From contig JBMFMB010000004.1 of assembly GCA_049970895.1 (NCBI GenBank), forward strand, positions 1 through 64,000: a DNA stretch of 64,000 bases, read 5' to 3'. The DNA is from Candidatus Bathyarchaeia archaeon. GTDB lineage: Archaea > Thermoproteota > Bathyarchaeia > Bathyarchaeales > Bathycorpusculaceae. Each line of letters opens with the position of its first letter. Positions within the stretch are counted from its first letter, which is position 1. A program made the translations under genes and the position numbers. Below, piece by piece: positions 21,616 through 64,000 of this stretch. The notes beneath the pieces are model-generated. The model was not told the DNA's origin. It searched no databases and saw only the letters and a program-made list of their open reading frames with translations.

Positions 21616-21662
21616 ACAGTTTTAGAACCTTTTATGCTAGATAAAATTTCTGAAGACCGTTT

Positions 21663-22232: not shown

Positions 22233-22335
22233 ATTTTGCCACCGCATAACCTAAACTATATATGAAAGTGGAAGGTTAGAGCTATACTCTTACATGGTTC
22301 ACATGGTAAAAATTTGGACTTGGTGCGGTTGACTG

Positions 22336-23268: not shown

Positions 23269-23270
23269 AA

Positions 23271-31110: not shown

Positions 31111-31323
31111 GGTATAAATAATGAAAAGCAAGGCGAGTAGAAACATTTATATCCGCTGAGACAGCTTCACATCTATCTTGGTGAAGTTGAGTTGCCCGCA
31201 TTTATCCGGCGGCGGCCCAACTTAGACCGTAAAGGCGTCTATACGCCTAAAAGGGATGAAAAAGGTTGGCCTCCACTTGCGGGCACAAAAATGTGGACCT
31301 GACGCTAACGTTAGGTCTGAAAT

Positions 31324-31372
31324 GGGCTTTGGCATGTGGATCTCCCCTCCAAATCCAGTCGGCTTTGCGGCC
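31324..31372 (+). repeat. 5' arm of 16S processing stem (pairs with 32916-32966)
   Basis: GGGCTTTGGCATGTGGATC / GATCCACATGCCAAAGCCC and TCCAGTCGGCTTTG / CAAAGCCGACTGGA, with BHB CTCC-AAA / GGAG-AAA. Confidence 0.92.
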
Positions 31373-31411
31373 GTATGCCAATAAGCGTCTCCGGCACTCA
31401 GCCGGAAGCTA

Positions 31412-32905
<1,494 letters not shown>

Positions 32906-32915
32906 AAGTAAGCAT

Positions 32916-32966
32916 GGCCAAAGCCGACTGGAGGAGAAAGCCTAGCGGATCCACATGCCAAAGCCC
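32916..32966 (+). repeat. 3' arm of 16S processing stem
   Basis: Complementary to 31324-31372. Confidence 0.92.
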
Positions 32967-33154
32967 GCTAACACTGTTTCGGTGTTCAATTTTGTCTTAG
33001 GTGTTGAGTTGCAAAATTGAGTAGCCCCTCTAGTTTTTCCTGTCGCCCAGCCAATTTGTGCTGTTGGACTTTTGTAAATTGGATACCCTCTCTAGATTTT
33101 TGCATGGTTTCCATTTTCTCTAGCCCCTCCTCTATACGTTTCGCTTCGTTGACG

Positions 33155-38343: not shown

Positions 38344-39243
38344 TTGAGGGTGGAATGCTTGGAGATAGCCAAAGTTGTTGAAGATGTGGCTTTTAACCTT
38401 CTGAAGCAGGCGGTCATATACCTTCCAGAAGACGTGAAAAAAGCCTTGAAAAAGGCTTATGCGGAAGAAACAAGCGAAGCCGCTAAAACCCAGTTGAAGG
38501 CTATCCTCGAAAACATAGAGCTTGCAGAGAAATATAAGGCGCCAATATGCCAAGACACGGGCACAATAATTTTCTATGCCCAGGCTGGGGCGGAAGTTAA
38601 AAACCTTGACAAGGTTGAGGAAGCCTTGGCTAAGGCGACAAGGAGGGCTACAAAGGAAATCCCGTTAAGGCCTAATGCTGTTGATCCCTTCACTCAAAAG
38701 AACAGTGGAGACAACACGGGACGGTTTATACCATACATAAACTGGGAAGTAGTCCCCGGCGACAGCCTCGAATTGACGGTTATAACGAAGGGTGGCGGTT
38801 CAGAAAATGCTTGCGTAACTGGGATGCTTGTGCCCGGCGAGGGCATAAACGGACTAAAGAAATTTGTCATAGAATCCGTTATAAAAGCTGGAGGCCAACC
38901 ATGCCCACCGACAATTCTGGGCGTTGCCATGGGTGGAGGGGCAGACATAGCCATGAAACTCGCGAAAAAGGCTCTTTTGAGACCTCTGGATCAGCCTAAC
39001 CCAAACCCAGAAATAGCGAAGCTTGAAAAAGAGCTTTATGAGGCGGCGAACATGACTGGAATTGGTCCGATGGGGCTGGGCGGAAAAACAACGGTTTTGG
39101 GCGTGCACATCGAGTATGCTTTTAGGCATCCTGCCTCTTTCCCGGCGGCTGTTGCCTTCAACTGTTGGGCTGCTCGGAGAGCAACTGCAAGAATTCACGT
39201 AGACGGGACGGTTGAATATTTAACCCATAAGGGTTTGGTGTGA
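38344..39243 (+). CDS. Fe-S fumarate hydratase alpha subunit (FumA/TtdA-like)
   Basis: PICQDTG, KGGGSEN, PCPP, GIGPMGLGG, CWA. Confidence 0.93.
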   Translation: MRVECLEIAKVVEDVAFNLLKQAVIYLPEDVKKALKKAYAEETSEAAKTQLKAILENIELAEKYKAPICQDTGTIIFYAQAGAEVKNLDKVEEALAKATRRATKEIPLRPNAVDPFTQKNSGDNTGRFIPYINWEVVPGDSLELTVITKGGGSENACVTGMLVPGEGINGLKKFVIESVIKAGGQPCPPTILGVAMGGGADIAMKLAKKALLRPLDQPNPNPEIAKLEKELYEAANMTGIGPMGLGGKTTVLGVHIEYAFRHPASFPAAVAFNCWAARRATARIHVDGTVEYLTHKGLV

Positions 39244-39255
39244 GGTGAAAATGGT

Positions 39256-39861
39256 ATGGCTGTATACCACTTTAAAACACCTATTTCAGAAGCGGAAATC
39301 CGCAAACTGAAGGTTAATGACACCATTTACATAACTGGAACCATTGTGACAGCCAGAGACCAAGCCCATAGGCGAGCCCTAGAGTATTTCAAACAAGGCA
39401 AGCCACTGCCAGTGAACCTTGAAGGGTTGGCGGTTTTCCACTGCGGACCAGTGGTGAGCAGAGAGGGCGATAAGTGGGTAGCTGTAGCTGCTGGTCCAAC
39501 AACAAGCACTAGGATGGATATTTTTGAAGATGAGTTTATCAAAAACTTCAAGGTCAGAGTCGTGATTGGAAAGGGTGGAATGGGAAAGAGGACAACGGAC
39601 GCCATGGCGAAATACGGAGCTGTCTACGGAGCCTTCACTGGCGGGGCGGCGATATTGGCGGCTAAAGCCATAAAGAATGTTAGGGGTGTGGAGTGGCTTG
39701 ACCTTGGCACGCCGGAAGCCTTATGGATTTTTGAGGTTGAAGACTTTGGACCATTAACGGTGGCTATAGACTCGCATGGAAACAACCTATTCCTGGAAGT
39801 GGCAAAAACTGTCGAGGAAAACAGGAAAAGGATTTATGAGAAACTGGGCTTACAGCCCTAA
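39256..39861 (+). CDS. Fe-S fumarate hydratase beta subunit
   Basis: TARDQAH, GPTTSTRM, IGKGG. Confidence 0.93.
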   Translation: MAVYHFKTPISEAEIRKLKVNDTIYITGTIVTARDQAHRRALEYFKQGKPLPVNLEGLAVFHCGPVVSREGDKWVAVAAGPTTSTRMDIFEDEFIKNFKVRVVIGKGGMGKRTTDAMAKYGAVYGAFTGGAAILAAKAIKNVRGVEWLDLGTPEALWIFEVEDFGPLTVAIDSHGNNLFLEVAKTVEENRKRIYEKLGLQP

Positions 39862-39884
39862 ACTTTCCACCATTTTTTAATTCT

Positions 39885-40361
39885 CTACAGCTCTCTGCTC
39901 ATTACGTAGGCGTCTTCCCCGTCCGAGTAATAGCCATGAATTGTCCTCGTAACCCTGAAGCCAAGTTTCTTATATAGGCTTATAGCTGGCACGTTTGAAA
40001 CCCTAACTTCTAGGAAGGCTTGTTTTGCATTGTATAGGCGCATCCCCTCCAAGGCTTTTGTCACTAAGGCTTCACCAATGCCCCTTCGCCTATGTTCTGG
40101 CATAACAGCTATGGAGACTATGTGTCCCTTCTTTATTAAGCCGCCGAAGCCGAAGTTTGATAAGCCCAACTCAATGCGGCACATGACATAACCAACAATT
40201 TCGCCATTTCCTTCAGCCACTATGAAGGTTTCTGGAAAACGATTATAAAGGTTCATGAAGAAGTAGTCACCGTAATTTTCCGGTAGGCAGACGCGGTTAA
40301 TATACATGACACGTTCAAGGTCTTTTGGCGTAAACTTCCGCAAGATGTATGTTTGCTGCAA
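39885..40361 (-). CDS. N-terminal acetyltransferase Ard1/RimI
   Basis: CLPENY, RRRGIG, LEVRVSN, YYSDGEDA. Confidence 0.95.
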   Translation of the reverse strand: MQQTYILRKFTPKDLERVMYINRVCLPENYGDYFFMNLYNRFPETFIVAEGNGEIVGYVMCRIELGLSNFGFGGLIKKGHIVSIAVMPEHRRRGIGEALVTKALEGMRLYNAKQAFLEVRVSNVPAISLYKKLGFRVTRTIHGYYSDGEDAYVMSREL

Positions 40362-40461
40362 GCTGCTCCTACTCCCACAGTGTTTTAACGCGATTATGGC
40401 GAAGCCTTTATGGTTAGGTTTGCATCCCCACTTTAAAGTTTTTCCAAAACCTTAGCCCCTT

Positions 40462-41733
40462 TTACTCGCTCGCCTTAACCTCTGGAAGCGTGAAGTTTCC
40501 GTAGGGCATAACCCAAACCTTAGCGTTTTCACCGACAATTTTGAAGGCTTCGTTGAGGGCTTCATTGACTGTGCGGGCTGTCCTAAGCCTAAAAACGTTC
40601 ACCGCGTAGTAGTCTGGCATGGCTGAAACTAGGATTATTTGGGCTTTCTGCAAAGCCTTCATTAAATAGTAGGCTTTATGCCCACCCAAAACAAAGTTGC
40701 GCCTAATCTCCCTCTCCACGGCTTTCAAGTCCTTAAACTTAACCATCCAATCGTAGAAGACCTGGTTTCCATGCCCTTCAGGGCATTCAGCCGCGAGAAT
40801 TATTACGCCGTCCCGCTTAACAACTTGTAAAGCGCTGTCAATGCCCTTATAGGCTTGGAAGAGGTTCACGTCAGCTGGATGCCCACCGGGGCTTACAACG
40901 ACTATGTCGGCTCTTCGATCTACTGGTATGCGGTACATCTCATCCACAAGCTTCACGCCCTCGTGGAAGGCTTGCTCCATGTCGCCCGCCAAAGCCCTCA
41001 CAATTTCGCCTTTACTGTTAAGCACAACGTTTACGATGAAATCCACTTTTGCCATCCTAGCGGCTTCCACCATGTCCTCGTGAATTGGATTTCCATCCAA
41101 AACGCCGGTTCTCGCGTTTGGATACAGAAGCATGGCATGATTAGCCTTAATAGTTTCTTCGCCAGCAACCCCTGGCAACACGCTTTTTCTCCCACCACCA
41201 TAACCAGCATAATAATGGAAGCAAACATCACCCGTCAAAATTTTCAAGTCAGCCTCCGCGAAAACGCGGTTCAAATAAACCTTCGTGCCATACTTAGGCG
41301 TGGTGCCCAAATAAACAAGGTCTTTGGCTTTGCAGTCGTGGCTTACGGCTTTAACACGTTTTAGGACACCTTCTCCTAAAAGCCTAAAAGCCTCCTCATC
41401 CGTAACAGCCCTATGCGTCCCACAACCAAAAATAATTGTGATGTTCTCGTCTTTGACGCCAGCACTATTCAACTCGTCAAGAATTGGAGGCACAATAACA
41501 TGGCTAGGAGCGGGTCTCGTGGCATCATCAACAACAATAGCCACCCTATGCTCCGGCTTAGCAATCTCACTTAGCTTTTTTGAGCCAATAGGCTCCCTTA
41601 AGGCTCTTTCAACCTCCGCCCGTGCATCTGGAACACCAGACTTCTCTTTTGGTTCTATGAAACCCAAAAGGTTTCGGGCTGGAACGCGGAGGCAAACCTC
41701 GGTTTTTCCATAGGGAAGCCAAACGTCAACCAT
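40462..41733 (-). CDS. larA: LarA-family nickel-pincer racemase/epimerase
   Basis: DDATRP, GTHR, HYYAGYGGGRKS, NH. Confidence 0.92.
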   Translation of the reverse strand: MVDVWLPYGKTEVCLRVPARNLLGFIEPKEKSGVPDARAEVERALREPIGSKKLSEIAKPEHRVAIVVDDATRPAPSHVIVPPILDELNSAGVKDENITIIFGCGTHRAVTDEEAFRLLGEGVLKRVKAVSHDCKAKDLVYLGTTPKYGTKVYLNRVFAEADLKILTGDVCFHYYAGYGGGRKSVLPGVAGEETIKANHAMLLYPNARTGVLDGNPIHEDMVEAARMAKVDFIVNVVLNSKGEIVRALAGDMEQAFHEGVKLVDEMYRIPVDRRADIVVVSPGGHPADVNLFQAYKGIDSALQVVKRDGVIILAAECPEGHGNQVFYDWMVKFKDLKAVEREIRRNFVLGGHKAYYLMKALQKAQIILVSAMPDYYAVNVFRLRTARTVNEALNEAFKIVGENAKVWVMPYGNFTLPEVKASE

Positions 41734-49560: not shown

Positions 49561-50070
49561 CTATGTGGGGAGAGCCACCTTCAGGGCTTCTTGGAAAAGC
49601 TTCTTTGTAGCCGTTATGCGGGCTTTCTGGGCTAGAACGTCAGCCGTAACAAGGTCTAGGGCTTCTTCTGGACACCATTTAACGCATTGGGGTCCGTCAG
49701 GCCTGTCCTTGCATAGGTCACAGACGAAAACCACCTTTTTCTCGGGGTGAAGGGAAATTGCCCCATAATCGCATGCTTCTATGCACCATCCGCAGCCGTT
49801 GCACTTGTCCTCGTCCACGATTATTGTGCCGTTTTCCTCAGACTGGGTTAGAGCGTCTCTTGGGCAGGCTGCCACACAAGGCGGGTCCTCGCAAAGCCTA
49901 CAGGTTATAGAAATGTTCACCAGTGGGTTTAGCCTAACAACCCTAATCCTAGACTTTAGGGGGTTGAAAACTTTTTCCTTGGTCCAAGCGCAAATGTATT
50001 CGCAGACTTGGCAGCCAACACACTTGTCTGGATCAGCTGAAACAAATTTTCTCTCATGAATCTTAACCAT
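49561..50070 (-). CDS. 4Fe-4S dicluster protein (AOR partner)
   Basis: CVGCQVCEYIC, CRLCEDPPCVAACP, CNGCGWCIEAC, CDLC...CP. Confidence 0.93.
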   Translation of the reverse strand: MVKIHERKFVSADPDKCVGCQVCEYICAWTKEKVFNPLKSRIRVVRLNPLVNISITCRLCEDPPCVAACPRDALTQSEENGTIIVDEDKCNGCGWCIEACDYGAISLHPEKKVVFVCDLCKDRPDGPQCVKWCPEEALDLVTADVLAQKARITATKKLFQEALKVALPT

Positions 50071-50083
50071 TCACATGCCTCCT

Positions 50084-51973
50084 CTAGGCTTTTCGGATTT
50101 TAGCCTCCACTATTGGGATTAGGTCGTCCATGCCCAAAGCCTTAAGCTTCTCTGGTGTGGGTATGCCATCCCTAGTCCAGCCCCTCACCTCATAATAGTC
50201 ATCCAGCATCATATCAAGCTCTTCTTGGGTGACATAAGCGCCCTTGGATGGACCTACGTCTGGGATTGGCATGTGCATAACCTTGTAAGGCAGATGGTCG
50301 TCTTTTCTGCCTAAGCCCTCTCGGACGTTTATGACTCTGGCAAGGTTGTTTATCCGCTCGCCTTTTAGGCGCATCTCCTCGGGTGTTGTTTCAAAACCAG
50401 TTACAAGCGTGTAAAGCTTGGCTAAATCCTCAAACTCCTTGTAGTAGGTGCCCCTTGAAAACTTGCAGATAATCAGCGAATCAATAATGGTATAAACGTC
50501 TTCGATGTCTTTAACCGCTTTCGCTCTGCCCTTCTCATACTTTAATCTGTTAAACTTGCCTTTAACGTCGAAGGCGTAGGCTCCATGCCTGTTGTGGTCG
50601 GCGCCACGGAACGAGACAGCGAAGCCCAAAGCTGCCGTCTTAAGAGAGCGCAAGTCGTAGCCGGTAACCTCAACGCCTTTAATGTGTTGGGCGAGCTTCT
50701 CGGCACCCTTTCCAATTTTTTCAGCTGCAAACTTCACACCTTCAGCTAGGATGTCGCCGATGCCCTCGCGTTTGCCCATCTTTTCCAAAAGCTTCACAAG
50801 AGCTTCGTGGTTGCCGAAGCGGGCTTCAATGCCATCCATATCCTTCTGTGTTAAAATGCCGTTTTCATAGCAGTCCATGGCAAAGCCTACAATCACGCCA
50901 GCGCTGATAGAATCCATGCCATAATAGTTGCAAAGCTCACAACCCTTAATAACGGCGTCTAGGCGGTCAATCCCACAGTAAGGTCCCATAGCCCACAAAG
51001 GCTCATATTCAACCCTCGCCATAGCACCCTTAAACGGTCCCTCATTAACGACACAGATGTGTTCGCATCTCATGGCACATGAGCTGCAACCGATGATTTT
51101 CGCCACATACCTCTCGTTCAAATATTCACCGCTAACCTTTTCCGCGGCTTCAAAATGCGCATTATTATAGTTCCGTGTTGGCATGCAGTGTAAAGCATTA
51201 TGCACTAAAACGTTTTCAGGTGTTCCCAAAGTCCTATACTTCTTTGTGGCTGGCCCCTTCATCCTCTCATGGAACTCCTTAACAAATTCTAGGAACTCGT
51301 CTGGCCTCGCCACCGTCACGTCGTGGGTTCCGCGAACAGCAATAGCCTTCAAATTCTTTGAACCCATAACAGCGCCCATGCCGCATCTTCCAGCAGCCCT
51401 AGTTTTCTCGTTAATTATGCATGCTATCCGCACGAGTTTTTCTCCAGCTGGTCCGATGGCGGCAACCCGAATGTAGTAGTCGCCCAACTCCTCCTTAATC
51501 ATATCTTCTGTTTCGGCTGGCGGCTTCCCCCACAAATGGGAGGCATCCAAAATCTGAACTGAATCGTCGTCAATCCAGACGTAGACGGGCTTTTCAGCCT
51601 TGCCATGGAAGATAACCGCGTCGTAACCAGCCCTTTTCAGCTCTGTGCCAAAACTGCCATGAGACTTAGACTCGCCGATGCCATAACTTTGGGGAGACTT
51701 AGCCACAAAAGCGTGGCCGTTTCCACCAGTGGGCCAAACGGTGCCAGAAGTTGGGCCAGTAGCCAAAACCAGCGGGTTTTCTGGGCTGAAGGGGTCAACT
51801 CCAGCCTTTGAATTGTCAAACCACAAGCGCATCCCAAGGCCTATTCCGCCAATGTATTTTTTGGCATAATCCTCGTTCAGCGGCTCCGTGTACGTTTTAC
51901 CAGTTGTTAGGTCTACGTGGAGAATTTTGCCAGCATAGCCATACAACCTAATTTTCCTCCATATCTCAGCCAT
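50084..51973 (-). CDS. aor: tungsten aldehyde:ferredoxin oxidoreductase family
   Basis: GYAGKIL, KSP, IGPAGE, GRCGMGAVMGSKNLK, C..C..RC, EYE, DDYYEVRGW. Confidence 0.95.
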   Translation of the reverse strand: MAEIWRKIRLYGYAGKILHVDLTTGKTYTEPLNEDYAKKYIGGIGLGMRLWFDNSKAGVDPFSPENPLVLATGPTSGTVWPTGGNGHAFVAKSPQSYGIGESKSHGSFGTELKRAGYDAVIFHGKAEKPVYVWIDDDSVQILDASHLWGKPPAETEDMIKEELGDYYIRVAAIGPAGEKLVRIACIINEKTRAAGRCGMGAVMGSKNLKAIAVRGTHDVTVARPDEFLEFVKEFHERMKGPATKKYRTLGTPENVLVHNALHCMPTRNYNNAHFEAAEKVSGEYLNERYVAKIIGCSSCAMRCEHICVVNEGPFKGAMARVEYEPLWAMGPYCGIDRLDAVIKGCELCNYYGMDSISAGVIVGFAMDCYENGILTQKDMDGIEARFGNHEALVKLLEKMGKREGIGDILAEGVKFAAEKIGKGAEKLAQHIKGVEVTGYDLRSLKTAALGFAVSFRGADHNRHGAYAFDVKGKFNRLKYEKGRAKAVKDIEDVYTIIDSLIICKFSRGTYYKEFEDLAKLYTLVTGFETTPEEMRLKGERINNLARVINVREGLGRKDDHLPYKVMHMPIPDVGPSKGAYVTQEELDMMLDDYYEVRGWTRDGIPTPEKLKALGMDDLIPIVEAKIRKA

Positions 51974-52108
51974 TTTTAGCGAGAATTAGATAACTCTATG
52001 TGATTTATATATTAATGTATCTGTTCACAATCGTCAGACATCTCCTTAAAATTTGAGGAAAATTTTGAAAGATGGAAGGGAACGAAGAAAGGAAGGAATT
52101 TAAAGAGC

Positions 52109-53674
52109 TTATAGTGTTTCCTTTAAGATTTCCAATATGTCCCTTACAGATATTTTATCTTCAACCTCAAGGACTTTTGTGGCGTCCTCTAATGTTGTTA
52201 CGCAGAAGGGGCAAGCCACGGCAATAACTTCAACTCCAAGCTCTAAGGCCTCTTTAACGCGGTTTACGCAAGGCCTCTTCTCTGGTTCGGCTTCTTCTGT
52301 CCAAACTCTTCCAGCCCCACCACCGCAGCAGAAGCTGGCTTCCCTTGTGCGCTTCATTTCAATGAGCTCTAGCCCGTTTATTGATTGGAGTATGCGTCTT
52401 GGCTCTTCGTAAATTTGGTTTCGCTTTCCAAGGAAGCATGGGTCGTGGTAGGCAACCCGCTTATTATAGGGCTTTGTGGGTTTGAGTTTGCCGTTTTCTA
52501 GAGTTTCTGCCAAAAACTGCGTGTAGTGCTGAACGTTCAGCCCCAAATCTTTGTAGGGCTTGTCATTTTTGAACGTGTTGTAGCAGTGAGGCGAAACCGT
52601 CACAATTCGGTTTGCGTTAAACTTTTTGAAGACAGCCACATTGTGTTCTGCAAGCATTTCAAACAAGCCTTTCTCGCCCATGCGCAGTATATGGTCTCCG
52701 CAACACCATTCCTCCTCGCCTAAAGTAGCGTAGTCAACGCCGAGCCTATCAAAAATTGTTGCCATTGTTCTGGCTATATCCCTATTCCTAACGTCGTAGG
52801 CTGTTGAGCAGCAAACGAAGAAGAGGACATCAGTCCCCGTCACGTTTGGGTAGGTTTTAACGTTTAAGCCCTCAGCCCAAGCCATCCGTCTACTCTGGTG
52901 GGTTCCCATAGGGTTATGGTATTTCATGACACTTTCAAGAACATCCTTAACGGTTCTTGGGATGGCTCCCATTTCAACTAATAGGCTGCGGTCCTCAACC
53001 ACAGAATCCGAACAGTTCACAAGTTTTGGACAGAAGAACGTACAAGAGTTGCATGAGGTGCAGAGCCAAACGTTATCAGCCATGGGCTTAAGCCTCTCAT
53101 CCAAGCCCTCATCCCTCGAATCGGCTATAAAACGGTAGTTAGCCGTCAAAGCCGAAGGTCCAAGGAACCTTTCGTCTATGGCTGCTGGACAAGCGGAGTA
53201 GCAAATTGAACATTTAGTGCAGAGCGTTAAGTCCCAATATTTTTTGAGGTCTTCTGGAGACTGGATGAACTCTTCGAGCTTTTTGAAGGCTTCAGGAGGC
53301 TTAATCAGCACAGTCCTAATTTTCCTAAGGTTTTGGAAGAAGGGTTGGATGTCAACCACCAAATCCTTTATGACTGGAAGGTTCGAGAGGGGCTCGATGG
53401 TTATTGTATCCGCATTAATGTCAAGAACTTGTGTATAGCATGCCAGCATTGGTTTTCCATTAATGTTCACTGCACAGCTTCCACAAATGCCCATCCGGCA
53501 TGAATGCCTAAAAGTTAGCGTTTCATCAAAATTCTCCTTAATATAATTAAGCACGTCAAGGATTGTTGTTCCGCGGCGTATCGGCACCTTAAATGTGGAA
53601 ATGTAACTCCTTTTGGCGTCTGGGTCGTAGCGGCGAATTCTGAATTCAACTATTTTAACAGCTTCACTATTCAT
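52109..53674 (-). CDS. tfrB: fumarate reductase Fe-S subunit fused to two CCG domains (TfrB-type)
   Basis: SCRMGICGSC, two 4Fe-4S motifs, WCCG and FCCGGG. Confidence 0.85.
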   Translation of the reverse strand: MNSEAVKIVEFRIRRYDPDAKRSYISTFKVPIRRGTTILDVLNYIKENFDETLTFRHSCRMGICGSCAVNINGKPMLACYTQVLDINADTITIEPLSNLPVIKDLVVDIQPFFQNLRKIRTVLIKPPEAFKKLEEFIQSPEDLKKYWDLTLCTKCSICYSACPAAIDERFLGPSALTANYRFIADSRDEGLDERLKPMADNVWLCTSCNSCTFFCPKLVNCSDSVVEDRSLLVEMGAIPRTVKDVLESVMKYHNPMGTHQSRRMAWAEGLNVKTYPNVTGTDVLFFVCCSTAYDVRNRDIARTMATIFDRLGVDYATLGEEEWCCGDHILRMGEKGLFEMLAEHNVAVFKKFNANRIVTVSPHCYNTFKNDKPYKDLGLNVQHYTQFLAETLENGKLKPTKPYNKRVAYHDPCFLGKRNQIYEEPRRILQSINGLELIEMKRTREASFCCGGGAGRVWTEEAEPEKRPCVNRVKEALELGVEVIAVACPFCVTTLEDATKVLEVEDKISVRDILEILKETL

Positions 53675-53688
53675 GTGCCAAGCCTCCC

Positions 53689-55389
53689 CTAATACTTTCT
53701 GACAGTGGGCTGCCACTTCGTAACTGTAACGGGGATGTACTCAAGCCTTGGGCCGTCCACTGTGTGGTATGCTAGTGTGTGCACAAGCCACTTCTCATCG
53801 TCGCGTTTTGGATAGTCAAGCCTTGAATGGGCGCCCCGCGACTCTGTTCTGGCTAATGCGCTGATTATGGTGACTTCAGCCAAGTCTAGCATGAAGTCGA
53901 GCTGTAGGGCTGCCGTAAATCCAGTGTTGAAGGTTTTGCCCTTATCCTCAACCTTTATGTGTTTAAACCTCTCCTTAAGGGTTCGAATCTCCTTTAAGGC
54001 GCTTTTCAATTCTTCGCCTGTTCTGAAAATCCAAACCTTAGTGTTCATAAGCCTCCTCATCTCGTCTCTAAGCCGTGGAACCCTCTCTTCACCCTCTCTT
54101 CCGAGGATACCGTCAAAAACCCGCTTTTCCTCGGCTAACGCCTTCTCCTCTGGAAATTCATGGAAACTGGCGGACATAGCGTATCTTGCTGCTTCCTCCC
54201 CTGCGACAGCCCCGAAAACCAAGCATTCAGCCGTTGAGTTTGTTCCAAGCCTATTGGCGCCGTGAAGGCTCAAGCAGGAGCATTCGCCAGCAGCATATAA
54301 CCCTCTGATGGGCGTTTCAGTTCTAATGTTGGCTTTTATTCCACCCATGGAATAGTGGGCTGCCGGACGAATTGGTATTGGCTCCTTAATCGGGTCAACC
54401 CCAGCAAGTTTTATGGCGACATCCCTTATTAGCGGCAGTCTCTCGTTAATTTTTTCTTCGCCTAAATGCCTAAGGTCCAACGCTATGTATGGTCCATGGG
54501 GACCAGTGAAGGCTCTTCCCTCAAGGATTTCAGTTTGCTCCGCCCTCGAAACCACATCACGAGGGGCTAACTCCATCTTTTCTGGGGCGTAACGCTTCAT
54601 GAAGCGTTCCCCAAGGGCGTTAAGCAAATAGCCGCCTTCACCCCTTGCGCCTTCAGTGATTAAAACGCCTGAAGGCACCAGTCCTGTTGGGTGAAATTGG
54701 ACGAACTCCATGTCTTCTAGGGGTGCGCCAGCCCGATAAGCCATAGCCATGCCATCGCCAGTCGTTGTGTGGGAGAAAGTTGTAAACTCGTATATGCGTT
54801 CATGTCCACCAGTAGCCATAACAACAGCCTTAGCTTTGAAAGCATGCATCTCGCCGGTTTTAAGCTCTATGGCTGTTAATCCCGCTACTGTGCCGTCCTC
54901 AACTATGAGCGATGTGGCAAACCACTCGTCGTAGAACTTCACATTTTCGTAGGTTATGGCTTTACCATAAAGTGTGTGCATCTCATGAAAGCCCGTCATA
55001 TCAGCCGCAAAACAAGCCCTCGGAAAGGTGTGCCCTCCGAAGGGACGCTGGTCTATTTTGCCGTCTGGCGTTCTGCTCCACGGGCAACCCCAATGCTCCA
55101 TTAGGATAATCTCTCTGGGGGCTTGCTCAACAAAGAACTCCACAACATCTTGGTCTGCAAGATAATCAGCACCCTTAACGGTGTCAAAAGCATGCAAATC
55201 AAAGGAATCCTTCTCCCTCATGACGGCGGCTGTTCCGCCCTGTGCACAGACAGAATGCGACCTCAAAGGGTGAAGCTTCGAGATCACCGCTATGTCCAGT
55301 TTGCTATTGTATTCGGCAGCTGCAACGGCAGCCCTTAAGCCAGCCAAGCCAGCGCCAACAATAACTATGTCGTGGGAGTGTTTCTCCAT
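53689..55389 (-). CDS. tfrA: fumarate reductase/succinate dehydrogenase flavoprotein (TfrA-type)
   Basis: [39 protein letters not shown]. Confidence 0.9.
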
Positions 55390-55534
55390 TAACAGTACCG
55401 CCATTTTGAAGAAATAACTTAGTTTCGCCTTCTAACGTTTATATTTTTCCGAAACAGCCACCATGTTAAACTTATTTTAGAGCGAAGCCAATAAATTGTA
55501 TAAGGCTACTGAGCAAATAGTGAAAGGGCGAGAA

Positions 55535-57046
55535 ATGTTCAATAAAGTTCTAATTGCCAACAGGGGAGAAATCGCCTTAAGGGCGATTAGGGCATGTAGG
55601 GAACTTGGCGTTAAAACAGTCGCTGTCTACTCTGAGGCGGATGCCGACTCGCTTCATGTCCAGTATGCTGATGAATGCTATTTTATAGGCGCGGCGGAAC
55701 CAAGCCAAAGCTACCTAAACATAGAAAAAATAATAGAAACAGCTAAAAAATCTGGTTGCGAAGCCATCCACCCGGGATATGGTTTTCTATCCCAAATTCC
55801 AGCCTTTGCAGAGGCATGCGCTGAAAACGGCTTGGAGTTCATTGGTCCCCCAGCCGAAGTGCTAAAAAGAATGGGGAATAAGGTTGAGGCTCGGAAGGCT
55901 GCGGCTGAAGCTGGAGTGCCAGTCATCCCCGGAAGCATAAACCCAACCAAAAGCCCAGAAGAAGCCATAAAAATAGCCGAAAAAGTTGGTTATCCAGTTT
56001 TGGTTAAGGCTGTTTATGGGGGTGGCGGGAAGGGCATGCGCCTAGTCAAAGATGGAGATGAAATGCGCCACATTTTGGAAACCGCCGCCTTGGAGGCGGA
56101 ATCCTCCTTTGGAAGCCGTGAAATCTACATTGAAAAGTTTCTTCCAAGGGCGAGGCATATTGAATTCCAAATACTAGCCGACAAGGGAGGGCGAGTAATC
56201 CACTTGGGCGAAAGGGAATGCTCAATCCAGAGGCGATACCAAAAACTCATTGAGGAGACACCATCGCCCTTCATGACGGCGGAACTGCGGAGGGAAATGG
56301 GCAAAGCAGCCATAAAAATTGCAAAAACCATTAACTATGTTAATGCCGGAACCGTCGAATTCCTCGTCGACCAAAGTGGCAACTATTACTTTTTGGAAAT
56401 GAACACTAGGCTTCAGGTGGAGCACTTAATCACCGAAATGGTGACGGGCATAGACATAGTTAAAGAGCAGATAAGGATTGCCGCTGACGAAAAACTCGCC
56501 TTCAACCAGAGGGACGTGAAAATCCGCGGACATGCCATAAACTGTCGAATAAACGCCGAAGACCCCTATAACAACTTTGCACCATCACCTGGAACCGTGA
56601 CAAATCTGCGGTTGCCAGGCGGTCCAGGCGTTAGGGTTGACACACACCTTTACGCTGGCTATACTATATCGGTTTTCTATGACCCGTTGATTGCAAAGCT
56701 TGCTGTTTGGGGTTTAAACCGCCAAGAAGCCATAAGGAGGATGCGCAACGCCCTAGAAGAATTCGTAATAGAAGGGGTTAAAACCACAATCCCCCTCCAT
56801 AAGCGAATAATGGAGGATGAAGACTTCTTAAGAGGAGACATCCACATAAACTTCGTTGGCGAAAGAATTTGGAAACTTCTTCCAGAAAAAGCCCTAACAG
56901 AGGAGGAGATAGCCGCACTCACCGCTGTGCTGGCAAACCAAACAAGCGAAGCAAAAGTCAGAGCACTAACCATAAAGCGTGAACAAGGGAAAGCTTCTCT
57001 TTGGAAGGCTGCTGGCAGAATTATTGGGCTGAGGCGAATCCTTTGA
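55535..57046 (+). CDS. accC: biotin carboxylase with C-terminal tail
   Basis: ANRGEIA, HPGYGFLS, GGGGKGMR, ERECSIQRR, EMNTRLQVEH. Confidence 0.95.
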   Translation: MFNKVLIANRGEIALRAIRACRELGVKTVAVYSEADADSLHVQYADECYFIGAAEPSQSYLNIEKIIETAKKSGCEAIHPGYGFLSQIPAFAEACAENGLEFIGPPAEVLKRMGNKVEARKAAAEAGVPVIPGSINPTKSPEEAIKIAEKVGYPVLVKAVYGGGGKGMRLVKDGDEMRHILETAALEAESSFGSREIYIEKFLPRARHIEFQILADKGGRVIHLGERECSIQRRYQKLIEETPSPFMTAELRREMGKAAIKIAKTINYVNAGTVEFLVDQSGNYYFLEMNTRLQVEHLITEMVTGIDIVKEQIRIAADEKLAFNQRDVKIRGHAINCRINAEDPYNNFAPSPGTVTNLRLPGGPGVRVDTHLYAGYTISVFYDPLIAKLAVWGLNRQEAIRRMRNALEEFVIEGVKTTIPLHKRIMEDEDFLRGDIHINFVGERIWKLLPEKALTEEEIAALTAVLANQTSEAKVRALTIKREQGKASLWKAAGRIIGLRRIL

Positions 57047-57582
57047 AAGTCTATGAAGTCTTAGTGGACAAGAAGGCACACAACATCAAGGTTTTGAAGA
57101 GGGAAAACGCCTCTTTTATCGTTGATGTTGATGGGAAAACTTTGGAGGTTAAATTTGCCAATTCCGGCGGCGGAAAATTTTCCCTAGAAATAAACGGTGA
57201 GAAGGTTCAAGCAGAGCTTTTTAGGTTGTCTGAAAACAAAATGAGGGTTAAAGTTGGCGCTAAAACCTTTGAGGTTCAATATCCAACGCCCACTTTTAAG
57301 CCGGAAACCTTGAAGGCTGAGGTTCTTCCCGCTATTACTAAAAAGCCAACGGTAAGCCTCGCATTCGGGAAGGATGCTGTTTTGGCTCCAATAGCTGGAA
57401 GGATTGTGGCATTAAAGATCAGCGTTGGACAAAGAGTTTCAAAAGGAGAGTGCGTATGCGTTTTGGAAGCCATGAAAATGGCAAATGAGGTGGCAGCACC
57501 AAAAGACGGGGTTGTCAAGGAAATCCTTGTCTCTGAAGGGGCTGTTGTGAATAAAGGCGATGTTTTGGCAATCATAGCTTAG
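57043..57582 (+). CDS. biotin carboxyl carrier protein 1
   Basis: EAMKM biotinylation motif; the TTG start overlaps the upstream TGA. Confidence 0.93.
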   Translation: MKVYEVLVDKKAHNIKVLKRENASFIVDVDGKTLEVKFANSGGGKFSLEINGEKVQAELFRLSENKMRVKVGAKTFEVQYPTPTFKPETLKAEVLPAITKKPTVSLAFGKDAVLAPIAGRIVALKISVGQRVSKGECVCVLEAMKMANEVAAPKDGVVKEILVSEGAVVNKGDVLAIIA

Positions 57583-57647
57583 AAACTTTTTTATAATAAT
57601 GGCTATTGCTTTTAAACCTCAATCGGGAAAGGAGTTGAAATAATCAC

Positions 57648-58049
57648 ATGTTTATCGGTGTGGACCATGTCGGCGTGGCGGTTAAAAATTTGGATGGGGC
57701 TATTGGAGTTTACCGAGACATTTTGGGCTTCAAGCTTTTAGGAGTTCACGTCCTAACAGAGCGGAAGGTTAAGGTGGCTTTCCTATCCACAGGCGGCGAA
57801 ACCCAAATCGAGCTTTTAGAGCCTCTGGGCAGTGATAGTCCTGTTGCCAAATTCCTTGAAAGTCGTGGTGAGGGCATCCACCACATAGCCGTCAAAGTGG
57901 ACGACATCGAAAATGCTTTGGAAGAGCTTAAGAAGAAGGGCGTAATGCTTATTGACGAAAAGCCGAGGGATGGCGCTGAGGGAAAGAAGATAGCCTTTGT
58001 CCATCCAAAAAGCACCAAGGGCGTCCTACTAGAACTCGTGATGGAGTAA
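57648..58049 (+). CDS. mce: methylmalonyl-CoA epimerase
   Basis: [34 protein letters not shown]. Confidence 0.96.
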
Positions 58050-58169
58050 AGCGAGAAAATCATAATCATCCAGATTGGGGGCTGAAGCCTTCTGCGTCCA
58101 GTAAAAACAGTCCTCCTCATCCAGTGTTTCCACTCTTTCGTAAGCGGTGTTCTCGGCGTTGTAATACCA

Positions 58170-59213
58170 TTGATGATGAAGGAGAGGCGCATAGACATAG
58201 TGCTGATAGGCTTTGTTTTTGCATCTATGCCCATAATAATGCAGCTGGGCAGAATGTTCTTCGCCACCCTCTCAGACTTTTTTGGAAGGAAGCCCTTCTT
58301 CATGGCAAACGGCTTTCTGGGCGCGGTTTCAAGCCTCATATACTATTTCGCCCACACACCAATGGAGTTCCTTTTCGGAAAAGTTGCAGAGGGAACAAAG
58401 GAAGGCGCCATATGGGCTGTTAACAGGGCTTATATCCTAGAAAGGAGCCGTGGAAACTGGAGGCTCCTTGTAAACCTAAGAACAGTTGTTTACGTTGCCT
58501 TTGCCGTGGGCAGCTTCATAGCTGGATTTCTGGCAGCCCTAATCCTATATGAGGGGACAATGATTCTCTGCGCTCTTTTAGGATTTTTGAGTTTCCTCCT
58601 CTCCTTTACGCTGATTGATGAGAGAAAAGGCGAGTTTAATGTCCAGCAAGCCTTACGTTTTCTCGATTTTAGAAGGAAAGGGCGAACCTTCAAAATTTTC
58701 CTCCTTCTCTTCTTCACATTAGGCTTGGCTTTCGGCTTCCGCTCCGGATACGTCATACCCTACTTCCTAAGCACCGTCGGCTTTTCTAAAGAAGATGTTG
58801 GACTGATTTTTGGAGCCATGATTCTTATGGCGGGATTTTCCTCATACATTTTCTCAAGATGCCATGATGTTAAGAGTCTCATCTTAATAAGCGGAATAGC
58901 CTATTCGGTTCCCCTCATTTTTCTAGGCTTCTCTCCCCCGATTTTCACCGTTGCTTTCGTGATTGCTGTGGGCTTCGCTGAGGGAATGAACAGTGTTGGA
59001 CAGGAGGGAATCTTATCAAAAGTATGTGAAAGGGAATCTTATGGAACTGATATTGGCTTGCTCATGATGGGGCTTCACATAGGCGAGTCGGCAAGCCTAG
59101 CCCTAAGCGGAATAATAATCGCCAAATGGGGCTTCGCAATCTCCTTCATACTAGCATCCACCATACACGCGGCTTTCTATATGGGCGCCTTCAAACTATA
59201 TACGGAGAAATAG
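58170..59213 (+). CDS. MFS transporter
   Basis: SDFFGRK motif and multiple TM helices; start uncertain. Confidence 0.85.
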   Translation: MMMKERRIDIVLIGFVFASMPIIMQLGRMFFATLSDFFGRKPFFMANGFLGAVSSLIYYFAHTPMEFLFGKVAEGTKEGAIWAVNRAYILERSRGNWRLLVNLRTVVYVAFAVGSFIAGFLAALILYEGTMILCALLGFLSFLLSFTLIDERKGEFNVQQALRFLDFRRKGRTFKIFLLLFFTLGLAFGFRSGYVIPYFLSTVGFSKEDVGLIFGAMILMAGFSSYIFSRCHDVKSLILISGIAYSVPLIFLGFSPPIFTVAFVIAVGFAEGMNSVGQEGILSKVCERESYGTDIGLLMMGLHIGESASLALSGIIIAKWGFAISFILASTIHAAFYMGAFKLYTEK

Positions 59214-59215
59214 CC

Positions 59216-60037
59216 TTGCCCACAAACATTAAAGTGGAAAAACTCCAAGAAGGACTGAAAACAAGGCTTATCGGAAAATACATTTTCTTCGCCCATGAGG
59301 TCGGTTCAACCAACAACTGGGCTAAGGAGCTGGCGGAACTCGACGCTCCAGAAGGCACAGTCGCCATAGCCGAAACCCAAACCGCTGGGCGTGGAAGACT
59401 CGGAAGAAAATGGATTTCACCAAAGGGCGGTTTATGGTTCTCAATAATTTTTAGGCCAAAACTTAAGCCGCAAGAAACCGTTAAGCTCGTGTTTTTGGCT
59501 TGCCTAGCCGTTGCTGAAACCATACGCGACATGTACGGCTTGAAGACTGAAATCAAGTGGCCAAACGATGTCCTAGTTGATGGTCGAAAGGTTTGCGGCA
59601 TACTCTCCGAAATGAAGACTGTTGGCGAAAAAGTGGATTACGCAATAATTGGTGTAGGCGTTAACGCCAACTTCGACGTGGAGAAAGAGTTTCCAGAAGA
59701 ACTCTGGGAAAAAGCCACATCCGTCCAAAAAGCCTTGGGCAGAAAAATCGCCTTAGAAGAGCTTTTTAAGGCTTTACTTGAGAAAATGGACAACCTCTAC
59801 CAAATCTTCCTAAAAGAAGGCTTCAAGCCAATTCTTGAAAAGTGGAAAGACTTAGCATACTTTCTGGGCTGCGAAGTGGAAGTTTACGGCGATGGCGAAA
59901 AATTTGAAGGCATAGCCTCCAGCGTCGGCGATGACGGAGCACTGATTTTAAAGCTTAAAGACGGCTCGGAAAGGCGTATTTTTGCCGGAGACTTATCCAT
60001 AAAGTTGAGGTGTAAAGTTTCCTTTTCGGTTAAGTAG
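59216..60037 (+). CDS. birA: biotin-protein ligase (no HTH)
   Basis: STN, QTAGRGRLGRKW.SP, KWPND, KVCGIL. Confidence 0.96.
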   Translation: MPTNIKVEKLQEGLKTRLIGKYIFFAHEVGSTNNWAKELAELDAPEGTVAIAETQTAGRGRLGRKWISPKGGLWFSIIFRPKLKPQETVKLVFLACLAVAETIRDMYGLKTEIKWPNDVLVDGRKVCGILSEMKTVGEKVDYAIIGVGVNANFDVEKEFPEELWEKATSVQKALGRKIALEELFKALLEKMDNLYQIFLKEGFKPILEKWKDLAYFLGCEVEVYGDGEKFEGIASSVGDDGALILKLKDGSERRIFAGDLSIKLRCKVSFSVK

Positions 60038-60429
60038 AATCCGCGTTTTTCAGCTGTTCCAGAAGCACTTTTGGGTCTGGATGCCATTGTCCCCATTTTC
60101 TGCATATGTGCTCTGTCCAGCTGTAATTCTCGTAGGTGTAGGGGTCTGGGCGTCCATTTTTCAGTGGGATTTTCGCTTTTAGCCGCTTATAATAGTCTTG
60201 GGCTAGGTAGCCCTCGTCCATAACTCATGGCTTCAGAAACCATTTCGTCTGTTAGTTGCGCTCCCTATCCCGCGACAGTAATATGCTGTAGGCTTGAGAG
60301 GCGAAAGGCGCCTGCCGTCCAACCCCTAATAATTGTGCGTATAACGTTTTCTGGTGGCATGTCAGCCTTATACTTGCGGATGGACTTGTGGCTTAAAAGT
60401 GTCTGAATAACGGGATTTTGCTCCATCAT
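60030..60429 (-). pseudogene. nitroreductase remnant with internal deletion
   Basis: MEQNPVIQTLLSHKSIRKYK N-terminus and MDEGYLAQDYY...YSWTEH C-terminus, with the middle missing. Confidence 0.7.
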
Positions 60430-60556
60430 GGCATGAGTACTCCTTTTCAGTTCTGAAGTAAAGGTTAAGTTGAGATATAATTTTCTGGCTGCGGCTGCAT
60501 ATATCCTAAATACTGATTGCCCCTACATATTCTAGCAAACCGGAAGGTGTTGGTTT

Positions 60557-62125
60557 ATGGTGGAGATTAGAGAGCCAACTGTTGAGGAGAAGATTAGGCG
60601 TTTGCATGAAATGCGGGAGCAAGCCAAACTTGGCGGTGGGCTTAAACGCATTGAAGAGCAACACGCGAAGGGTAAGCTAACAGCTAGAGAACGCATAGAC
60701 CTCCTCTTAGACCCAGGAAGCTTCAACGAGCTTGACCAGTTTGTCGTCCATCAGTGCACTGATTTTGGCATGGCTGAACGCAAATACCTGGGCGACGGCG
60801 TTGTAACAGGCTATGGCACAATAGATGGAAGACTTGTCTACGTTTTCTCGCAAGACTTCACGGTTTTCGGCGGCTCATTAGGCGAAATGTTCGCACGTAA
60901 AGTCTGCAAACTCATGGATTTAGCCATGAAAACTGGCGCGCCGGTCATAGGCTTAAACGATTCTGGCGGGGCGCGAATCCAAGAGGGTGTTGCAAGCCTT
61001 GCTGGTTATGGCGACATATTCTTCCGTAATGTTATGGCTTCTGGCGTTATACCCCAAATATCCGCCATAATGGGACCATGTGCAGGCGGAGCCGTATACT
61101 CGCCAGCCCTAACAGACTTCATAATAATGGTGGACAAGACAAGCTACATGTTCATCACAGGACCAGATGTTGTCAAAACTGTTCTGGGACAAGAAGTAAC
61201 CTTTGAAGAGCTTGGTGGAGCAATGGTTCACAGTCAAACCAGTGGTGTAGCCCATTTCATAGCCAAAGACGAGGAGCAATGCATCCAAATAATTAAGAGG
61301 CTTTTGAGCTATTTACCCAGCAACTATCTTGAAGACCCGCCGTATGTGGAGACCGGGGATGACCCAAACCGAACAGACGAGGAATTAGCACGCATAATGC
61401 CAGACGACCCAGACAAACCCTACGACGTTAAGGAGATAATCCACCGCGTCGTAGACAACGGCGAATTCTTTGAAGTCCAACCTCTATGGGCGCCAAACAT
61501 AGCCATAGGCTTTGCAAGGTTGAATGGGCACACTGTTGGAATAGTAGCCAACCAACCAGCCTACTACGCTGGAGCCTTGGATATAAACTCTTCAACAAAA
61601 GCCGCGAGGTTTGTGCGTTTCTGTGACTGCTTCAACATACCAATAATAACTTTCGTAGACGTGCCAGGCTTCTTGCCGGGCATAGAGCAGGAACACGGTG
61701 GAATAATACGCCACGGTTCAAAACTGCTTTATGCCTACTGTGAAGCTACAGTTCCAAAAATAACCGTTATACTCCGCAAAGCTTATGGTGGAGCCTACGA
61801 CGTCATGGGCTCAAAACATTCAGGAGGAGACATAAACTATGCCTGGCCAACAGCCGAAATCGCCGTCATGGGACCGCAAGGAGCCATAAACATAATTTTT
61901 AGGAAGGAAATTGCCGAAGCACCAGATCCTGAGCAAAAACGCTTGGAGCTTGTCAGCGATTATAGGCGGAAGTTTGCCAACCCCTATGTGGCGGCGCAGA
62001 AGGGCTACATTGACGATGTTATAGAGCCAGCTGAAACACGCCCCAAACTAGTAAGCGCCCTTGAAATGCTCATGACAAAACGCGAGGCTAGACCATCCAA
62101 AAAACACGCGAACATTCCATTATAG
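60557..62125 (+). CDS. acyl-CoA carboxyltransferase (PccB / transcarboxylase 12S-like)
   Basis: [39 protein letters not shown]. Confidence 0.96.
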
Positions 62126-62181
62126 ATAAATAAGTGCTTCTCCAAGTTTCACTTTCTAACGCTCTCTCAAAGTGAAAGGTC

Positions 62182-63726
62182 TTGAACGCGAAGCCCATTA
62201 GAATTACTGATACAACGTTTCGCGACGCCCACCAGTCTTTGATGGCTACTCGAATGCGCACGGAATCGATGCTTCCCATAGCCGAGAAAATGGACCATGT
62301 GGGCTTTTTCTCCATGGAGGTCTGGGGCGGCGCCACCTTTGACGTTTGCATACGCTACTTAGCCGAAGACCCATGGGAGAGAATCCGCCAACTTAAAAGG
62401 CGTATCAAGCGAACGCCACTGCAAATGCTCTTGCGAGGGCAGAACGTTGTTGGCTACCGGAATTATCCGGATGATGTTGTCATAAAATTTGTTGAGAAAG
62501 CCGCTGAAAACGGTATAGACATTTTCCGTGTTTTCGACGCCCTAAACGATGTCCGCAACATGGAAGTAGCCATAAAAACCGTCAAGAAGGTTGGGAGACA
62601 CGCTCAGGGCACGATATGCTACACCATAAGCCCAGTCCACACAATAGAGTACTACGTAGATGTTGCCAAAAAACTGGCTTGGCTTGGATGCGACTCCATA
62701 TGCATTAAGGACATGGCTGGAATGCTGGCGCCACAACCAGCCTACGAACTCATAACAGCCTTAAAAAGGGAGGTGGGCTTGCCGGTGCACCTCCACTGTC
62801 ACTGCACCAGTGGAATGGCTATGATGACATATTTGCGGGCATGCGAAGCTGGAGTAGACATAATAGACGCAGCTTTTTCGCCACTGGCATGGGGCACATC
62901 CCAGCCACCAGTAGAGTCCATAGTTGCAGCCTTAAAGGGGACGCCGTACGATCCCGGGTTTGACATGACGCTTTTGCAGGAAATTGCGGAATACTTCAGG
63001 GAGCTTAGGGAGAAATATTACGATCCATTGGGGCTTATAGACCCCAAAGCCGAGAGGGTTGACCCTTCCATAATGGTTCACCAGATTCCTGGCGGGATGT
63101 TCTCCAACCTTATCGAGCAGTTGAGGGAGCAGAACGCCGTTCATAGACTTAGAGAGGTCCTCGAAGAAGTCCCAAGGGTGCGAAAAGAGCTTGGTTATCC
63201 ACCTCTGGTTACGCCTACAAGCCAACTGGTTGGCATTCAAGCGGTGCTTAACGTCTTGTCTGGGAAACGTTACAGCATAGTGCCAAAAGAGGTTAGGGAC
63301 TATGTTAAAGGGTTTTATGGGCAGCCTCCAGCCCCAATAGATGAGGAGGTTAAGAGGCTTATTATTGGCGACGAGGAGCCCATAACATGCCGCCCAGCAG
63401 ACCTTCTTGAGCCAGCCTTAGACAAAATTCCAGAGGATGTTAAGCCCTACATTGAAAGCGAGGAGGACATGCTCACCTACGTCTTGTTCCCAGCTATTGC
63501 CCCAGAATTCTTCAAAAAACGGAAAGCCAAAAAGGAGGAAGCCAAAACGGGCGTGCCGCCAGAAAGGCTGGCGGAACTGGAGCAGGTGGCAGCAGTGTCA
63601 GCAGCAGTTGCCGCTTACATAACAAGCCTACGTGAGGTGAAAGCCCTAACCCTTCAAAGGGCTAAGCGTGGAATTTCGCCTTGGGTTTTGGCTGGAAGGC
63701 AAAGCCTAGCCGAGCATGGTGGGTGA
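62182..63726 (+). CDS. pyruvate/oxaloacetate carboxyltransferase (5S/OadA/PycB-like, no fused biotin domain)
   Basis: RDAHQSL, WGGATFD, KDMAG, HCH, HQIPGGM, PPLVTPTSQ. Confidence 0.95.
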   Translation: MNAKPIRITDTTFRDAHQSLMATRMRTESMLPIAEKMDHVGFFSMEVWGGATFDVCIRYLAEDPWERIRQLKRRIKRTPLQMLLRGQNVVGYRNYPDDVVIKFVEKAAENGIDIFRVFDALNDVRNMEVAIKTVKKVGRHAQGTICYTISPVHTIEYYVDVAKKLAWLGCDSICIKDMAGMLAPQPAYELITALKREVGLPVHLHCHCTSGMAMMTYLRACEAGVDIIDAAFSPLAWGTSQPPVESIVAALKGTPYDPGFDMTLLQEIAEYFRELREKYYDPLGLIDPKAERVDPSIMVHQIPGGMFSNLIEQLREQNAVHRLREVLEEVPRVRKELGYPPLVTPTSQLVGIQAVLNVLSGKRYSIVPKEVRDYVKGFYGQPPAPIDEEVKRLIIGDEEPITCRPADLLEPALDKIPEDVKPYIESEEDMLTYVLFPAIAPEFFKKRKAKKEEAKTGVPPERLAELEQVAAVSAAVAAYITSLREVKALTLQRAKRGISPWVLAGRQSLAEHGG

Positions 63727-63727
63727 A

Positions 63728-64000
63728 ATGCCAACATACGAGATTTTTGTAAACGGAAAGCCTTTGAAAATCGGAGTTTCAAAAACTGGTGAAAAGGCTT
63801 TTATCGTCAAGCTTGGCGACAGATCCTTTAATGTAGAGGTTCTAAACGGCAAAATTCAGCCTGAAAAAGAACTTCAAATAAGAGTTGACGAAAAAGCATA
63901 CGCTGTGCTTTTTCAAGAGGTTAGCAAAACAAAGCCTTTCACGGTTAAGGTTGAAGAGGCATCCTTCAAAGTGGAGTTGAAAACGCCCACGTTGGCAAGA
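63728..64000 (+). CDS. probable biotin carboxyl carrier protein 2 (truncated by window)
   Basis: MPTYEIFVNGKPLKIGV... resembles the N-terminus of carrier 1; no biotin motif falls inside the window. Confidence 0.7.
   Translation, partial: MPTYEIFVNGKPLKIGVSKTGEKAFIVKLGDRSFNVEVLNGKIQPEKELQIRVDEKAYAVLFQEVSKTKPFTVKVEEASFKVELKTPTLAR

Follow-up and report, generated by a model that had tools for sequence, protein, structure and literature searches.

A common C-terminal tail on a biotin carboxylase and a 5S-type subunit beside a single carboxyltransferase in Bathyarchaeia

At the end of a 64 kb stretch of DNA from an uncultured Bathyarchaeia archaeon lies a cluster of biotin-enzyme genes in which two unrelated catalytic heads, a biotin carboxylase (BC) and a 5S-type pyruvate carboxyltransferase subunit (5S), end in a homologous tail. 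Each head is followed by a biotin carrier, and the genome holds a single CoA-carboxyltransferase (CT). Given the common tail on two unrelated enzymes and the predicted-barrel carriers next to them, both heads likely plug into this sole CT. We consider it probable that a propionyl-CoA carboxylase (PCC; EC 6.4.1.3) and a methylmalonyl-CoA:pyruvate transcarboxylase are built on one CT by means of a split BT domain, whose barrel comes from fold prediction and whose docking and activities we infer. The stretch, hereafter the window, comprises the opening 64 kb of contig C4; the genome measures 1.34 Mb, at 97.3% completeness and 1.9% contamination.

Results

The genes run in the order BC, carrier 1, methylmalonyl-CoA epimerase, MFS transporter, biotin ligase (BirA), CT, 5S and carrier 2. 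The parts that concern us most are as follows.

55535..57046, plus strand: BC, 503 aa, the ATP-using head with the tail at its C-terminus (Pfam Biotin_carb_N/CPSase_L_D2/Biotin_carb_C)
56882..57019, plus strand: BC tail, BC aa 450-495; all-hydrophobic helix, VxAL strand and S-x-W-x-x-x-GR segment, predicted BT helix and anchor
57043..57582, plus strand: carrier 1, 179 aa; BT-like barrel, linker and biotinyl domain (EAMKM; Biotin_lipoyl 1.5e-19)
60557..62125, plus strand: CT of the PccB/12S type, 522 aa, sole genomic copy
62182..63726, plus strand: 5S/OadA/PycB-type pyruvate carboxyltransferase, 514 aa, tail at its C-terminus (HMGL-like and PYC_OADA)
63559..63699, plus strand: 5S tail, 5S aa 460-506, homologous to the BC tail by alignment and profiles
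63716/63728 to 64288, plus strand, running past the window edge on contig C4: carrier 2, 190 aa; predicted barrel, linker and biotinyl domain

All gene positions of an initial annotation of the window stand; its tail starts (56900 and 63580) lie one or two codons upstream of the letters it quoted, which is immaterial.

The tail that the initial annotation saw on both heads is common to them by several measures. The best local alignment of whole BC with whole 5S is the tail itself, about 46 aa long, and its score of 75 was never reached when the last 60 aa were shuffled 20,000 times, and once in 2,000 whole-protein shuffles. A profile of 40 5S tails, run against 12,624 open reading frames (ORFs), retrieved 24 BC tails at E 6e-13 to 3.6e-5, ahead of other protein types, and a profile of 19 BC tails retrieved 5S tails in the reverse search. 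Among the 8,522 ORFs of the archaeon's own genome the tail profile has two strong matches, both catalytic heads (BC and 5S), and no delta subunit bearing the tail was found there. Across 67 tails, nine consecutive columns of the helix (14-22) are 97-100% small or hydrophobic. The tail Trp served as alignment anchor and is hence invariant by construction; of the residues flanking it, S is kept in 63 and R in 62 of the 67.

What does this tail resemble? The C-terminal profile of BC aligns onto the BT helix region of a PCC alpha chain, the alignment of the tail to two alpha chains ends after the helix, and none of the 67 tails matches PCC_BT or BT_MCC. The BC tail matches ACC_epsilon (PF13822) under the cut-off (E 0.0024; 18.9 bits against 25), and 11 of the 67 tails match this family at E<=1, the best at 4.4e-5. 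A search of 1.84 billion representatives with the tail profile yielded 42 matches; the 31 proteins inspected, 30 of these matches and one more, are mostly C-termini of 5S and BC, membrane delta subunits and small free-standing proteins. OAD_gamma is present in the delta-like ones, which weakly resemble MmdD, and small ORFs between CT and carrier at Desulfotomaculum and Pelotomaculum loci weakly match MmdE; the link of the tail to MmdD and MmdE runs through intermediate matches. MmdD and MmdE bind the CT subunit. The S-x-W..R segment likewise recurs in free epsilon and membrane delta subunits adjoining CTs. Given these relatives (AccE-type, MmdD, MmdE and delta subunits), the tail is, as judged from its sequence, most likely an epsilon/delta anchor fused to a catalytic head. 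The helix of the mycobacterial epsilon subunit lies inside a barrel of carrier-linker hairpins, its C-terminal hairpin anchored in the CT ring (PMC13612425, PMC13012033, bioRxiv 10.64898/2026.02.06.704326), and in GCC and MCC a hook Trp is buried in CT (PMC4673880).

The two carriers are related as well. Their N-termini, whose beta-rich likeness had been pointed out, align with a score of 80, which none of 5,000 shuffles reached, and the own genome has only two ORFs with strong carrier-profile matches. The N-terminus is predicted to form an eight-stranded antiparallel barrel (about 63734-63982 in carrier 2) that superposes on the BT domain of PCC alpha with a TM of 0.73-0.78; the whole carrier aligns with PCC alpha over 183-193 columns. 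Carrier 1 matches PCC_BT at E 4.9e-4, under the cut-off, with residues 4-83 on model positions 34-114. The TTG start of carrier 1 overlaps the BC stop codon, and in both modules a stop codon and an overlapping start place helix and barrel on separate polypeptides; a longer fused form was not found in a weak search. Of the split BT-like domain suggested in the initial annotation, the barrel is upheld by fold prediction and the helix by sequence; of the two likenesses it drew for the W..GR segment, to AccE/PccX and to BT, the first appears the better, since the segment resembles the AccE, MmdD and MmdE anchors more than the PCC-alpha hook.

The genome contains all the parts of a PCC: a BC with intact catalytic motifs, a biotin carrier, and a CT of the PccB type whose residue equivalent to PccB 422 is Asp, which we take to favour propionyl-CoA. 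The parts of a transcarboxylase are complete too, namely the 12S-type CT, a biotin carrier and a 5S-type subunit with the motifs RDAHQ, IKDMAG, HLHCH and VTPTSQ, presumably the catalytic motifs of 5S-type enzymes. The 5S protein matches the structures 5KS8, 2NX9 and 1RQB, is 89-93% identical to proteins in records named Bathyarchaeia, and ends in the helix tail without Biotin_lipoyl, hence without a fused biotin domain. It scores best with PycB (NF006761, 804.8 bits), exceeds with 738 against 718 the equivalog cut-off of NF008985, 'oxaloacetate decarboxylase subunit alpha', and falls below that of PRK12330, the propionibacterial 5S orthology (574 bits, cut-off 827). The claim of a single CT holds: neither a second CT nor another PycB-like gene was found in the 97%-complete genome. 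OAD_beta (PF03977) has no match there, the control search being positive in 2 of 14. The genes beyond position 64000, which it had been proposed to inspect for oadB or mmdB, include neither; carrier 2 is followed by the large subunit of methylmalonyl-CoA mutase (contig C4 64294-65973, minus strand), which is convergent.

How general is this arrangement? We surveyed 301 genomes of the class Bathyarchaeia. 5S-type proteins occur in 34 of them, BC in 60, CT in 96 and OAD_beta in 33 (32 above the cut-off). Thirteen genomes hold 5S, BC and CT without OadB; ten hold 5S and CT with neither BC nor OadB; 41 have BC and CT without OadB and without a full 5S, in one of which (G200) the beginning of a 5S runs into a contig end; eight combine 5S, CT and OadB; and in two, 5S and BC are present with no CT assembled. 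Each head is also found alone with CT. OAD_beta is absent from all 94 genomes of families f1-f9, the matches in the class lying elsewhere.

Within the order of our archaeon, the 23 genomes with CT have a single CT match each, and at most loci 5S stands directly after CT or near it. Nine of the 24 5S genomes lack BC, an absence that a PF02785 search confirmed in all nine, yet keep 5S, tail, carrier and CT; each has one tail and one carrier, beside 5S, other lipoyl matches being frames of 368-387 aa and a 100-aa contig-edge frame in G215. Because BC and OadB are absent from these genomes, a transcarboxylase is the simplest enzyme that CT, 5S and carrier can make. Fifteen genomes have both heads, with two tails in 14 and two carriers in 12 (in G280 the BC is cut by a contig end). 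G125 (99% complete) and G298 (98%) encode a tailed BC without adjoining carrier, and the sole carrier of each genome follows 5S; their BCs keep the main catalytic positions. Of all the genomes, these two suggest most strongly that a single barrel and a single CT can serve different heads, though both are bins and related genomes do not count as independent. Their stand-alone BCs (L199 5809-7323 in G125, L200 7973-9469 in G298) have a shortened linker and are distant from the CT-5S-carrier cluster.

In a quick tree the BCs of Bathyarchaeia form one clade (support 99), which includes CT-adjacent BCs of genomes without 5S and leaves the sampled PycA-type BCs outside; the BCs of G125 and G298 group apart from the others of the order. 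Within the order, the 55 carriers that adjoin 5S group together (support 97), nested among BC-adjacent carriers, which fits one old duplication of a tail-plus-carrier cassette. CT with a tailed 5S and a long carrier is also seen in records of Chloroflexota and Methanomassiliicoccus (L084, L086, L089, L091, L104, L094, L182), and the tailed 5S of these groups requires at least three label changes on the tree. In G303 both 5S and BC bear the tail, but there are two CTs. Where a carrier lies next to OAD_beta it is short and of a one-hairpin type, and in family f13 the 5S proteins have a beta-rich C-terminus in place of this tail. The f13 cluster (L027-L030, L074), with CT, an epsilon-like protein of 147-156 aa, the beta-rich-ended 5S, a carrier, OAD_beta and a delta subunit, is a hybrid of transcarboxylase and Na+ pump parts.

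Two other genes of the cluster have assigned functions:

57648..58049, plus strand: methylmalonyl-CoA epimerase (TIGR03081, above cut-off)
59207..60037, plus strand: biotin-protein ligase, BirA (TIGR00121, above cut-off)

Between birA and CT (60030-60429, minus strand) lie short ORFs, the first of which weakly matches the start of the nitroreductase NfsA (E 0.0016) and is probably a gene remnant; the spacers on either side of CT vary widely among relatives. Directly upstream of BC, and divergent from it, is a fumarate reductase pair with a CCG domain, a block that adjoins BC in several relatives. This region (49561-55404, minus strand) encodes the flavoprotein and an Fe-S/CCG subunit (TfrB-like, under the cut-off), then aldehyde:ferredoxin oxidoreductase and ferredoxin; no membrane anchor gene was seen beside the fumarate reductase genes. 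Farther off in the window are a two-subunit class I fumarase with a nickel-dependent malate racemase (LarAH6, above cut-off) at 38344-41733, an FwdF-like polyferredoxin with HdrA2 at 22336-25727, and a region around 31000-33000 with few ORFs, whose translations have the look of ribosomal RNA.

The genome as a whole encodes two mutase large subunits, a B12-binding subunit, MeaB, class I fumarase, HdrA and succinyl-CoA synthetase, as well as malic enzyme, GTP-PEPCK and an Ldh_2-family dehydrogenase; classical malate dehydrogenase gave no match above the cut-off. The mutase paralogs, on C4 at 64294-65973 and on C8 at 20962-24600 (L196 8963-12583), are 67% identical. The C8 copy stands with the B12-binding subunit, MeaB and CobA, following three thiolase-like genes, and one of the two paralogs could be an isobutyryl-CoA-type mutase.

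Discussion

We propose that the C-terminal tail supplies the core helix of a BT domain and the adjacent carrier its eight-stranded barrel, and that this helix-barrel module would dock either head on the single PccB/12S-type CT. With BC and carrier 1, CT would act as an ATP-dependent PCC, whose domain order would be that of a PCC alpha chain with a stop codon cutting between helix/anchor and barrel. With 5S and carrier 2, it would act as an ATP-free methylmalonyl-CoA:pyruvate transcarboxylase, a head that probably arose when the tail-plus-carrier cassette was duplicated onto a pyruvate carboxyltransferase. The transcarboxylase would link a propionyl-CoA/succinate route to pyruvate and oxaloacetate, its partners being epimerase, mutase, succinyl-CoA synthetase, fumarase and soluble fumarate reductase. 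Its role could be in forming propionate, as an electron sink, or in oxidizing propionyl-CoA; the genes fit either direction. The reactions of BC-dependent carboxylase and transcarboxylase sum to ATP-dependent pyruvate carboxylation; the two heads together would thereby replace pyruvate carboxylase, which is missing from the genome.

Several observations weigh against such an assembly. After thinning of kin, the likeness between tails of one genome does not reliably exceed that between tails of different genomes, and the W..GR anchor segment has no match among solved structures. The two carriers are long-separated lineages, and the heads may for that reason normally keep their own partners, perhaps their own hexamers. 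In G008 (L198 11669-13481) BC spans two frames and carrier 1 has a frameshift, with CT, 5S and carrier 2 undamaged; either the BC module is being lost or the assembly is in error. A more far-reaching idea, which we hold only tentatively, is that the tail serves as a universal plug, by which a CT hexamer might take any of several heads: BC, 5S or a membrane delta anchor, the last in other lineages. PCC, transcarboxylase and Na+-pumping decarboxylase would then be one machine with different heads, and here BC and 5S might share a hexamer, exchange with the energy state and together act as a pyruvate carboxylase that runs on propionyl-CoA in catalytic amounts. Its pure case would be G125 and G298, where two heads have a single carrier.

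The tail might merely capture the carrier, its helix inside the barrel, while head-carrier pairs meet CT transiently or by other surfaces without a common docking site, which would leave PCC and transcarboxylase as the two activities. Structural support falls on helix and barrel, and both the unmatched W..GR segment and the lack of robust covariation of tails within genomes agree with capture. We nevertheless think it unlikely, since S-x-W..R is conserved in both heads and in the free epsilon and membrane delta subunits beside CTs, and since the hook Trp of GCC/MCC (PMC4673880) and the C-terminal part of AccE5 (PMC13612425, PMC13012033) are lodged in CT. That BC, 5S and a carrier make up a CT-independent pyruvate carboxylase of three parts, with CT a separate PCC beta subunit using the same BC, appears improbable. 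The nine BC-less genomes keep the rest of the module, 5S directly follows CT or lies near it at most loci, and BC clusters with CT-adjacent BCs, apart from the sampled PycA types. In the two-subunit enzyme, moreover, the beta chain gives strands and BC the helix (PMC5059739), whereas here BC and 5S both give a helix and therefore lack the complementary parts. The best match of 5S is nonetheless PycB, also by structure (5KS8), in a genome without another PycB, and a BC common to pyruvate carboxylase and acyl-CoA carboxylase has been suggested for Archaeoglobus (PMC3199775). Least credible of all are soluble parts, or a remnant, of a Na+-pumping oxaloacetate or methylmalonyl-CoA decarboxylase made of 5S, carrier 2 and CT. 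5S does pass the NF008985 cut-off, relatives are labelled oxaloacetate decarboxylase subunit alpha, and the tail resembles the MmdD C-terminus. Gene content already contradicts such a pump: neither the own genome nor families f1-f9 contain OAD_beta, which was found elsewhere in the class and in two controls, the genome has no tail-bearing delta subunit, and where OAD_beta does occur the carriers are of the one-hairpin kind and the f13 5S is tailless.

Compared with known systems, the split BT domain proposed here has the same order as that of PCC alpha (PF18140; PDB 3N6R, 6YBP, 7YBU), where BC, helix, loop, eight-stranded barrel and biotinyl domain follow each other beside a PccB-type CT. Here it is cut into two genes after the loop, the loop is of the W..GR type and appears to differ from the PCC hook, and the same helix and loop also stand on a 5S-type subunit. 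The transcarboxylase of Propionibacterium freudenreichii (EC 2.1.3.1; 12S 1ON3, 5S 1RQB, 1.3S 1DCZ) likewise has a 12S-type CT, a 5S and a carrier clustered with epimerase and mutase, and as in that enzyme BC is not needed in nine genomes; its 5S ends in a beta-rich segment without this tail. That enzyme is already known, and a fourth small coding sequence belongs to its operon (PMC2909200); at the Pelotomaculum and Desulfotomaculum loci the epsilon-like ORF is free and the carriers are of the one-hairpin kind. Unlike these types, the anchor is here fused to 5S, the barrel would come from one chain, and BC would share CT. Split BT-like domains are known as well. In mycobacterial AccA3-AccD4/5-AccE5 a separate helix sits inside a barrel of carrier-linker strands, with a C-terminal anchor on the CT ring (PMC13612425, PMC13012033, bioRxiv 10.64898/2026.02.06.704326). 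Weak sequence links join the tail to ACC_epsilon, MmdD and MmdE; in AccE5 and MmdD/MmdE the helix belongs to an epsilon subunit that is free or a delta subunit in the membrane, and each of four chains contributes one hairpin, whereas in our archaeon the helix forms the tail of a catalytic head and a single carrier would supply all eight strands. The two-subunit pyruvate carboxylase of Methylobacillus flagellatus (5KS8) also divides a BT-like domain between chains and has an Ala-rich helix at the BC C-terminus (PMC5059739), but no hook and no CoA-CT; its strands come from two PycB chains, and PycB has its own biotin domain. A BC shared by two CTs has been proposed for Archaeoglobus (PMC3199775). 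In our literature search we found no record of a 5S subunit with a BT helix, nor of one CoA-CT serving BC and 5S heads.

If the plug is portable, it would be a simple handle for new biotin enzymes, for example engineered CO2-fixing carboxylases, and the cluster offers a small soluble system for the long-standing question of head docking on the CT hexamer. It would represent a second way of building a transcarboxylase, on a PCC-like scaffold. Our findings point to an archaeal transcarboxylase behind the database labels oxaloacetate decarboxylase and pyruvate carboxylase; part of the Bathyarchaeia would accordingly have a propionate/succinate route of the Wood-Werkman type.

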